From Dictyostelium discoideum (Eukaryota), in contig CM000153.2 in assembly GCA_000004695.1 (NCBI GenBank), positions 3,904,001 through 3,968,000 on the forward strand: a stretch of DNA of 64,000 nt, given 5' to 3'. The position numbers were made by a program, and so were the translations under genes. How positions within the stretch are numbered: the first letter of the stretch is position 1; every line of letters begins with the position of its first letter. Positions 42,443 through 43,271 of the stretch are shown here, one piece after another. The notes under the pieces were generated by a model. It did not search any database, had not been told where the DNA came from, and worked only from the letters and a program-made list of their open reading frames with translations.

Positions 42443-43271
42443 TTAAAAAAAAGACCATAACAGATAACTGTCCCAATCCATAAAAGTTTTTCCATATGCT
42501 TTTGCAATGTCAATTGATGGTGTTGAGTATATACCTTTCCCATATGCAAATCGGGTACATTTAGATAGTTGATAACCTTCTTTAGCTATTGAACTACACG
42601 AAATATCATTTGTACCATGGTATGAAACTAACCATTCATTTGGACCATTACAATGTCCTAGCCAAGTTTTTCCATCAGTTTCTGTGTTATATTTGTTTAC
42701 ATTTAATGCAAATCTCATCCAACCACATGGGCGAGTATATATATACTTCACTACCACGATAATGAACAATTGGATCTTTAATGTTTCTAAAATCAAAATC
42801 AAATGATGGCGAAGTAAAACCATCATTAATGAAATAAATAAAACTGGTACCACCTCCTTTTTAAACCAATTTCCATATGAATAGTTGATCCAAAGGTAAT
42901 GTTATAATCTGAAATTATATGACCATCTTCAAGTTTTTCCCCTCGATAAAATAATGTTTGAAATCTTACTGGTAAATCAATTTTATAACGAATTTTTTCT
43001 TTTAAATCTTTATCCAATTCAGATTCTTTAACTTGAAGCCAAAACGATTCACCATTTAATGTCTTTATGATGATATTTGTTCTAATTTCTATTCGATTAA
43101 TATTGCTAAGATCTGTATTGCTGGCTCATCCATTTGCAAAAAACGTTTATGAAAAGATTCAGTCTCTAAACCAATAAAACTATACCCCAAATAATTTTTC
43201 TTTTCACTTTCATAAATAACCAAATGATTAAAAATTGCTGATAATCCGAGAGTTAATAAAGATTTATCCAT
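42443..43271 (-). pseudogene. Degraded gene encoding a ubiquitin-like domain followed by a PARP-type mono-ADP-ribosyltransferase catalytic domain. It is broken by at least 3 frameshifts and truncated at its 3' end, where it abuts the TRE5 remnant.
   Basis: The UBL is IIIKTLNGESFWLQVKESELDKDLKEKIRYKIDLPVRFQTLFYRGEKLEDGHIISDYNITFGSTIHMEIGLKRR. The PARP core is NEWLVSYHGTNDISCSSIAKEGYQLSKCTRFAYGKGIYSTPSIDIAKAYGKTF, compare PARP15 [52 protein letters not shown]. The reading frame switches three times across the 43271-42700 region, partly at A-runs, and the domain lacks its last 60-80 residues. Confidence 0.6.

Follow-up and report, generated by a model that had tools for sequence, protein, structure and literature searches.

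The locus and its annotation

The window analysed here is a 64,000-nt stretch of the Dictyostelium discoideum AX4 genome, AT-rich with only 22.6% GC. Three-frame translation of positions 42443-43271 on the reverse strand reveals one gene which can be read only by passing over three frames, and whose conceptual product joins a ubiquitin-like (UBL) domain to the greater part of an ADP-ribosyltransferase (ART) domain of the PARP fold. It is very probable that 42481-43271 is a genuine unprocessed pseudogene of a UBL-ART family in D. discoideum AX4, and that the gene annotated at this position, DDB_G0286017, is merely its longest surviving open frame.

The reading frame from the ATG at 43271 starts MDKSLLTLGLSAI... 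and runs open until a stop at 43089 (-). The N-terminal motif that it encodes corresponds to high-confidence helices in the AlphaFold 2 (AF2) model of an intact relative. The UBL domain follows in a second frame; it belongs to Pfam ubiquitin (PF00240), which it matches over residues 68-136 of the conceptual protein with 50.8 bits (cut-off 25.4; E=1.4e-13), and it aligns to PDB ubiquitin across 78 residues. The ART domain is itself split over two frames. Both the NAD+-binding His (in SYHGT, codon 42617-42619) and the Tyr (in GIYSTP, codon 42527-42529) of the catalytic triad are present on the reverse strand, and both are invariant in the family. Scored against Pfam PARP (PF00644), however, the window copy reaches only 13.0-14.9 bits, below the gathering threshold of 26.7. 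An earlier sequence-only reading of this DNA had described a decayed gene with ubiquitin-like and PARP-fold domains in three frames, and the three frame changes, the Pfam ubiquitin match and the 675 database matches of the ART segment bear this out.

The pseudogene body is 85.6-89.4% identical to three related copies in blastn alignments and 89.6-90.4% in MAFFT alignments, and every one of these alignments stops at 42481. No other UBL-ART copy was found inside the 64-kb window by tblastn.

DDB_G0286017 is carried on the 5.45-Mb AX4 contig as a “hypothetical protein” and is named a PARP catalytic domain-containing protein in UniRef. Its 126 residues are of three kinds: 26 are an out-of-frame reading of conserved sequence, 89 are genuine ART sequence and the final 11, together with the stop, come from unrelated DNA, namely the 81-bp spacer that adjoins the pseudogene (Table 1).

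Lesions and truncation

The frame changes result from indels of -4, -2 and +4 nt, all three peculiar to the window copy in the nucleotide alignment, which together break the frame three times. The sequence-only reading had ascribed them to homopolymer sites, with which these sizes do not agree. Of the two sites it named, “ttaaaaagg” does hold a frame change, but as a 2-nt deletion at 42858; at aaacaaatataac it is simply the wrong frame that meets a stop, and the true change lies at 42742-42745.

Homology to the three related copies, two from one close relative (gene 1 and gene 2 of locus L001, see below) and P0156 from another (L002), stops exactly at 42481, which is codon 271 of 317. The truncation has removed 146 nt of coding sequence, the last 47 codons, so that the alignment ends after F270 and the invariant residues Q282, N283, W299 and Y310 are absent, the ART domain having thereby lost its C-terminal strands and third triad position. 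Thus no continuous open reading frame (ORF) of ~270-350 amino acids with the N-terminal motif, the UBL and a full ART domain is found in the window. The earlier claim that the C-terminal third of the PARP domain is lost where a TRE5 remnant begins is therefore right as to the loss (47 of ~168 domain residues) and wrong as to the junction, since the 81-bp spacer intervenes.

A spliced transcript restoring one continuous frame had been named in the sequence-only reading as the finding that would speak against decay. All GT..AG combinations were enumerated, and no credible gene emerged. The best forced model has two introns and encodes 214 amino acids, with the non-consensus donors GTATAG and GTTTAA; its “introns” are 70-71% AT (29-30% GC), a composition like that of the coding region, and line up with coding DNA in the intact paralogs, which have a single exon. 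Invariant residues are deleted in this model and the C-terminus is still absent. It was rejected.

Table 1. Features at the pseudogene locus and around it (window positions).
Feature	Position	Strand	Basis and remarks
Pseudogene body	42481..43271	-	Homologous to intact single-exon UBL-ART genes; from conserved ATG (43271-43269) to codon 271/317
N-terminal conserved region (MDKSLLTLGLSAI... motif and linker)	43121..43271	-	Family alignment; in frame with the ATG
Frameshift 1, window-specific 4-nt deletion at ~43120	43117..43123	-	Indel table and alignment with intact paralog; in the linker before the UBL
UBL (beta-grasp) domain	~42859..43074	-	Pfam ubiquitin and PDB ubiquitin alignments; second frame
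Frameshift 2, 2-nt deletion at ~42858	42856..42860	-	Alignment; K-G-G-G end of the UBL, within “ttaaaaagg”
Retained N-terminal ~72% of the PARP-fold ART domain	42482..42857	-	Split over two frames
Segment GGGTSFIYFINDG...RGSEVY	42857 to ~42746	-	Frame reading
Frameshift 3, +4 nt	42742..42745	-	Alignment; (TA)2 expansion inside ...RGSEVY/TRPCGW...
Segment TRPCGWMRFAL...SYHGT...YGKGIYSTP...GKTF	42736-42482	-	Last frame; then 11 unrelated codons and stop (42443-42445)
Annotated coding sequence DDB_G0286017 (126 amino acids)	42443..42823	-	P0001 is 100% identical to the ORF
Spacer, 81 bp, unassigned	42400..42480	.	Between the oligo(A) end of the TRE5 element and the gene breakpoint
TRE5-type 3'-terminal C-module ending in oligo(A)	42283..42399	+	Aligned with 16167-16272, 46163-46240 and L002 copies
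Remainder of degraded TRE5-type element	41850..42282	+	Position and orientation, tandem repeats, L001 alignment; upstream of tRNA-Ser; boundaries approximate
tRNA-Ser(UGA)	41723..41804	-	ARAGORN; 98.9% identical in L001; target of the TRE5 insertion on the 3' side of the gene
tRNA-Ala(AGC)	43721..43793	-	ARAGORN; conserved in L001; 450 bp upstream of the pseudogene ATG
TRE5-A.2 ORF1	44218-45552		
TRE5-A.2 ORF2 stub	45528-45803		
TRE5-A.2 duplicated B-module	45929-46147		Repeats the start of ORF1
TRE5-A.2 C-module	46163-46240		Followed by oligo(A)
Left TRE3-like element	APE-type ORF2 from 38971	+	
Right TRE3-like element	ORF1-like frame 40327-41505	-	

The UBL-ART family

With the ART segment as query, an initial word-index search for homologs returned DDB_G0286017 alone. 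An exhaustive HMMER search, with the 100-residue frame-1 ART segment of the window copy as query, found 675 cluster representatives at E<=1e-3, 243 of them at E<=1e-10. The matches cover query residues 1-89, beyond which 45-55 residues remain in the intact subjects; the C-terminus is therefore really missing from the window copy. Those members that carry a source name belong to dictyostelids, bdelloid rotifers, Hydra and Glomeromycota, and the pairing is for the most part annotated simply as “ubiquitin-like domain-containing protein”. Judged from these matches, UBL-ART is a populous, patchily distributed eukaryotic family, and the view of UBL-PARP as a rare domain pairing, taken in the sequence-only reading, has to be given up.

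Intact members are single-exon genes for proteins of ~310-320 amino acids, consisting of an MD.SLL..GLSAI N-terminal motif, a linker, a UBL ending in (R)GG and an ART domain of ~170 residues. Invariant in the latter (P0155 numbering) are D168, D174, W210, W220, V222, H225, G253, Y255, P258, A263, F270, Q282, N283 and Y310; in terms of motifs, these include the His of SYHGT, the Tyr of GIYSTP and the Gln-Asn of LQNRVNP. P0155 (317 amino acids), P0156 (311) and P0157 (311) are uninterrupted copies with a full C-terminus in close relatives, and the DNA of P0155 and P0156 is 90% identical to the window copy. Copy number differs from one near-identical Dictyostelium genome to the next, and the annotation of the close relatives includes several intact copies.

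The sequence-only reading had suggested a search for an intact paralog, and such paralogs exist: the 317-codon gene 2 of L001, P0156 and, in AX4 itself, the more questionable DDB_G0280589 (P0185; 275 amino acids, on the 6.36-Mb contig), which has a complete ART domain and is 45% identical to P0155. Apart from DDB_G0280589 and the pseudogene, no AX4 member turned up in searches that were not exhaustive, the DDB_G0280589 query being largely swamped by polyubiquitins. The N-terminus of DDB_G0280589 is ~38 amino acids shorter than that of its 90%-identical relative P0266, and at four sites where conservation in the family is at least 90% it is substituted (F169S, R187C, G212S and G311C); the gene may thus be wrongly modelled or in decay. 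Another member, P0002 (Dictyostelium cf. discoideum, KAM9993011.1, 404 amino acids), has a tandem duplication of the C-terminal half of its ART domain within the one predicted protein, which could be real or could be an artefact of assembly or annotation.

A literature search found nothing specific on DDB_G0286017 or on a UBL-fused ART family, and no functional study; the family looks uncharacterised. A survey of PARPs from 2010 lists no UBL-ART architecture (PMC2964712).

Relation of the C-terminal domain to known ADP-ribosyltransferases

Among 21 domain-only family members, 16 match Pfam PARP at E<0.1 (best 3e-6), mostly below threshold. For the ART domain of the intact P0155 the score is 23 bits against the threshold of 26.7, and only some members have a precomputed PF00644 match. 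A family profile compared with PDB sequences matched almost only the ARTD clade (PARP10, PARP16, PARP15, PARP12, ZAP and exotoxin A); the E-values were marginal, from 0.011 to ~0.9, and yet the alignments fell exactly on YHGT and G.GIY. The assignment to the ART fold thus holds at the level of the superfamily and clade (PARP plus diphtheria-toxin clade), whereas membership of Pfam PARP by score does not.

The closest resemblance is to the mono-ADP-ribosylating PARPs (human PARP16, PARP15 and PARP10; PF00644): in the alignments, the YHGT and G.GIY motifs place their His and Tyr opposite the NAD+-binding H and Y in PARP10 and PARP16. The family also differs from the ARTD PARPs. Most members and the window copy score under the Pfam gathering threshold, the family has an N-terminal subdomain of its own (F.P.YDYDFT...RG..Y.RPCGW.R.AL), and its ART domain is fused to a UBL, the window copy being further distinguished by the loss of its last 47 residues. 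Furthermore, an invariant Gln, and not Glu, Ile, Leu or Tyr, probably takes the third catalytic position in this family; from the order of the strands, Q282 would occupy this position and be the equivalent of E988 of PARP1. The ancestral protein is predicted to have been an NAD+-dependent ADP-ribosyltransferase.

A non-canonical eukaryotic ART offers a second point of comparison. The NEURL4-type ART domain, the account of which is reportedly due to de Souza and Aravind in 2012, is likewise eukaryotic and lies outside the canonical PARPs. Its predicted triad is H-Y-E[D-Q], so that Gln is permitted at the third position (Cardamone et al. 2022, PMC8932523), as proposed here for Q282. The likeness does not extend to the motifs, which were compared as published: NEURL4 has “HGS” and “ELEW” (PMC8932523) where the UBL-ART family has “HGT” and “QNRVNP”. 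Nor does it extend to the architecture, NEURL4 being fused to neuralized repeats and the present family to a UBL.

Copies in close relatives

The window was compared by blastn, filtered against AT-rich noise, with L001, from an assembly labelled D. discoideum (GCA_054859355.1). L001 is syntenic to the window, with unique flanks ~92% identical, and has the gene order RRM, TMEM33, tRNA-Asp, UBL-ART gene 2, tRNA-Ser, UBL-ART gene 1, tRNA-Ala, CAP. Gene 2 is an intact single-exon gene of 317 uninterrupted codons. Gene 1 has in-frame +6 and -24 indels in common with the window copy; the two are therefore orthologs. Gene 1 keeps its 3' end but is itself a pseudogene, disabled by a -2 frameshift of its own and by TAA codons at two places in the frame. 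The automatic model of this gene, P0003 (KAM9958091.1; L001:6001-6940), is a 243-residue protein with three implausible introns that bridge the -2 frameshift and the two TAA codons. Since the window copy and its ortholog have decayed independently in two lineages, this points to relaxed constraint and not to a single TRE hit. The third copy used here, the intact P0156 (311 amino acids), aligns with the window only down to 42481.

L001 and L002 come from assemblies GCA_054859355.1 and GCA_054859385.1, both labelled “Dictyostelium discoideum”, and share ~86-95% identity with the window where the DNA is unique and syntenic. Divergence on this scale goes far beyond what is expected within D. discoideum, and the two assemblies probably represent distinct cryptic species.

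In the window, the interval between tRNA-Asp and tRNA-Ser, where the relative has gene 2, is occupied by two convergent TRE3-like elements and a gap of 100 N (40336-40435). The AX4 ortholog of gene 2 could be hidden in this gap.

tRNA genes and retroelements beside the pseudogene

The sequence-only reading had placed the gene in a tRNA/TRE island, and correctly so: tRNA-Ser, tRNA-Ala, a TRE5 remnant and a TRE5-A.2 element lie around it. On its 3' side is the TRE5 remnant. In the published geometry (PMC3159450), a TRE5 element sits ~50 bp upstream of its target tRNA gene, turns its 5' end towards the tRNA and closes at its 3' end with a C-module and oligo(A), and the element on the left flank has the C-module, the oligo(A), the orientation and the position relative to tRNA-Ser expected of TRE5-A or TRE5-C, its 5' boundary being approximate. 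All aligned C-module copies end in ...CAATTC(A)n, and the module recurs upstream of other tRNA genes. The window element differs from published TRE5 (PMC3159450) in being only a degraded ~550-bp remnant whose oligo(A) end falls 81 bp short of the gene break; in having no 3' B-module ahead of the C-module, it is TRE5-C-like.

Within the remainder of the element there is an ORF-bearing segment (~41877-42137), followed by (TAAA)18 and A-rich tracts. The counterpart of this segment in the debris of the relative is only loosely alike. Judged by eye from the alignment, the TRE5-like debris at tRNA-Ser is ~60-65% alike in window and L001, as against ~92% for the unique flanks; orthologous debris is thus disfavoured, and from this difference the two are probably independent insertions. 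The 81-bp spacer showed no homology to the gene copies in any alignment. Its similarity to a C-module was not significant (p ~0.07-0.13), and it was rejected as a decayed second one.

On the 5' side, conservation with the relative extends over ~70 bp ahead of the ATG; next comes a tandem duplication, local in nature, and then tRNA-Ala. The earlier description of the gene as sandwiched between retroelements is consequently accurate for the 3' side, where the TRE5 remnant lies, but not for the 5' side, where native DNA and a tRNA gene separate it from the TRE5-A.2 element beyond.

Nature of the locus

The identification as an unprocessed pseudogene is based on the disabling lesions, the ~70-bp conserved 5' flank and the syntenic place between tRNA-Ser and tRNA-Ala. 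The lack of introns is uninformative as to retroposition, because the parent genes are intronless. In addition, substitutions unique to the window branch number 8, 9 and 6 at codon positions 1, 2 and 3, with 18 nonsynonymous and 5 synonymous changes, a pattern that fits neutral drift.

Several observations weigh against this identification. Intact paralogs also show high ratios of nonsynonymous to synonymous changes (13:7 and 15:6), and since they too evolve fast the substitutions do not settle the matter. Almost every residue that is invariant in the family is still encoded as far as the break, with only Y167F and T170R differing, so that the inactivation may be recent. The locus carries a protein-coding gene annotation. 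Finally, an exact-sequence look-up of P0001 found no independent AX4 sequencing of the locus, and the indels rest on one assembly; the same look-up for P0185 gave no match either.

It could accordingly be argued that the gene is intact in the organism, and that errors of sequencing or assembly in an AT-rich, repeat-rich region near a gap account for the frame changes and the abrupt 3' end. The window does contain three 100-N gaps, one of them (40336-40435) ~2 kb from the pseudogene, and of the indels one falls within a (TA)n tract and another beside an A-run; the conserved residues that persist up to the break and the lack of a second assembly of the exact sequence would also fit such errors. 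However, indels of these sizes are unlike single-base homopolymer miscalls, unrelated DNA, running gaplessly into a recognisable TRE5 C-module, stands in place of the 3' end, and the ortholog in an independently sequenced relative is disabled as well. We infer that the lesions are real, and consider this explanation very unlikely.

Equally improbable is that DDB_G0286017 is a functional truncated gene, for example one whose product is dominant-negative, or is a small fragment that binds NAD or has a regulatory role. Its annotation as an AX4 protein and the survival of the His- and Tyr-bearing segments could be taken in this sense, but the 26 residues at its start come from conserved coding DNA read out of frame and the 11 at its end from unrelated sequence, while the final strands of the ART fold, with Q282, N283 and Y310, are absent. 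Further, it lacks its own promoter: the 5' flank and ATG that are conserved lie 450 nt upstream, with frameshifts between. The substitutions of the window branch show no third-position bias.

That splicing or programmed frameshifting joins the frames into one functional product is hardly conceivable: although a two-intron model with a 214-residue ORF can be constructed, and an automatic annotator made the analogous P0003 for the copy of the relative, the “introns” have non-consensus donors and an exon-like 29-30% GC, are collinear with coding sequence of single-exon paralogs and remove invariant residues, the C-terminus is absent even so, and three independent programmed frameshifts would be unprecedented.

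If the locus is a pseudogene, as we consider very probable, then a deletion would have taken the last 47 codons with the strands that bear Q282, N283, W299 and Y310, and the removed DNA would have been replaced by the 81-bp spacer and, beyond it, the 3' end of the TRE5 remnant that targeted the neighbouring tRNA-Ser. The sequence-only reading held that TRE insertions had killed the gene. This is not demonstrable, as the C-module ends at 42399 and the break is at 42481, and as the ortholog in the relative, where TRE5-like debris also lies at tRNA-Ser, has its 3' end in place and was disabled by other lesions; the decay of the window copy therefore needs no TRE. A canonical TRE5 insertion ~50 bp from the tRNA displaces neighbouring DNA without deleting it, so the truncation would require an extra deletion whose far end merely falls near TRE-derived sequence.

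As regards annotation, DDB_G0286017 should not be counted among the Dictyostelium ADP-ribosyltransferases. The erosion of a gene family situated between tRNA genes also indicates that tRNA/TRE islands are not entirely “safe havens” in this compact genome. The relic itself is ordinary, and the UBL-ART family is the more useful by-product, one that may merit its own study: hundreds of UBL-ART proteins lie just under the Pfam PARP threshold and are therefore missed by surveys of the PARP family. It is possible, although we regard it as rather doubtful, that this is a fast-evolving, uncharacterised UBL(GG)-ART family with a probable H-Y-Q triad, whose copies are gained and lost in tRNA/retrotransposon islands, as might fit a part in genetic conflict or immunity, or a UBL of its own that is cleaved or ADP-ribosylated.

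Other features of the window

Upstream of tRNA-Ala, an element with the TRE5-A.2 layout (~43830-46250; parts in Table 1) is present in the window and absent from the relative; the layout is as published (PMC3159450). A second, internally deleted TRE5-A (15945-16272) lies upstream of tRNA-Asp (15821-15893), an A-run and the C-module being joined directly to the beginning of its ORF1. Between tRNA-Asp and tRNA-Ser, the convergent pair of TRE3-like elements extends over 38524-41505 and meets at the gap 40336-40435.

The tandem duplication on the 5' side of the pseudogene (43330-43410 and 43440-43520) has a period of ~110 bp and 89% identity, the relative having one partial unit only, and long T and A runs lie beyond it at 43530-43580. 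A B-box-like GGTTCGATTCC motif is found at 43677-43690 (-), ~30 bp 3' of tRNA-Ala, and is conserved in the relative; it is similar to the external B box known from tRNA genes of Dictyostelium.
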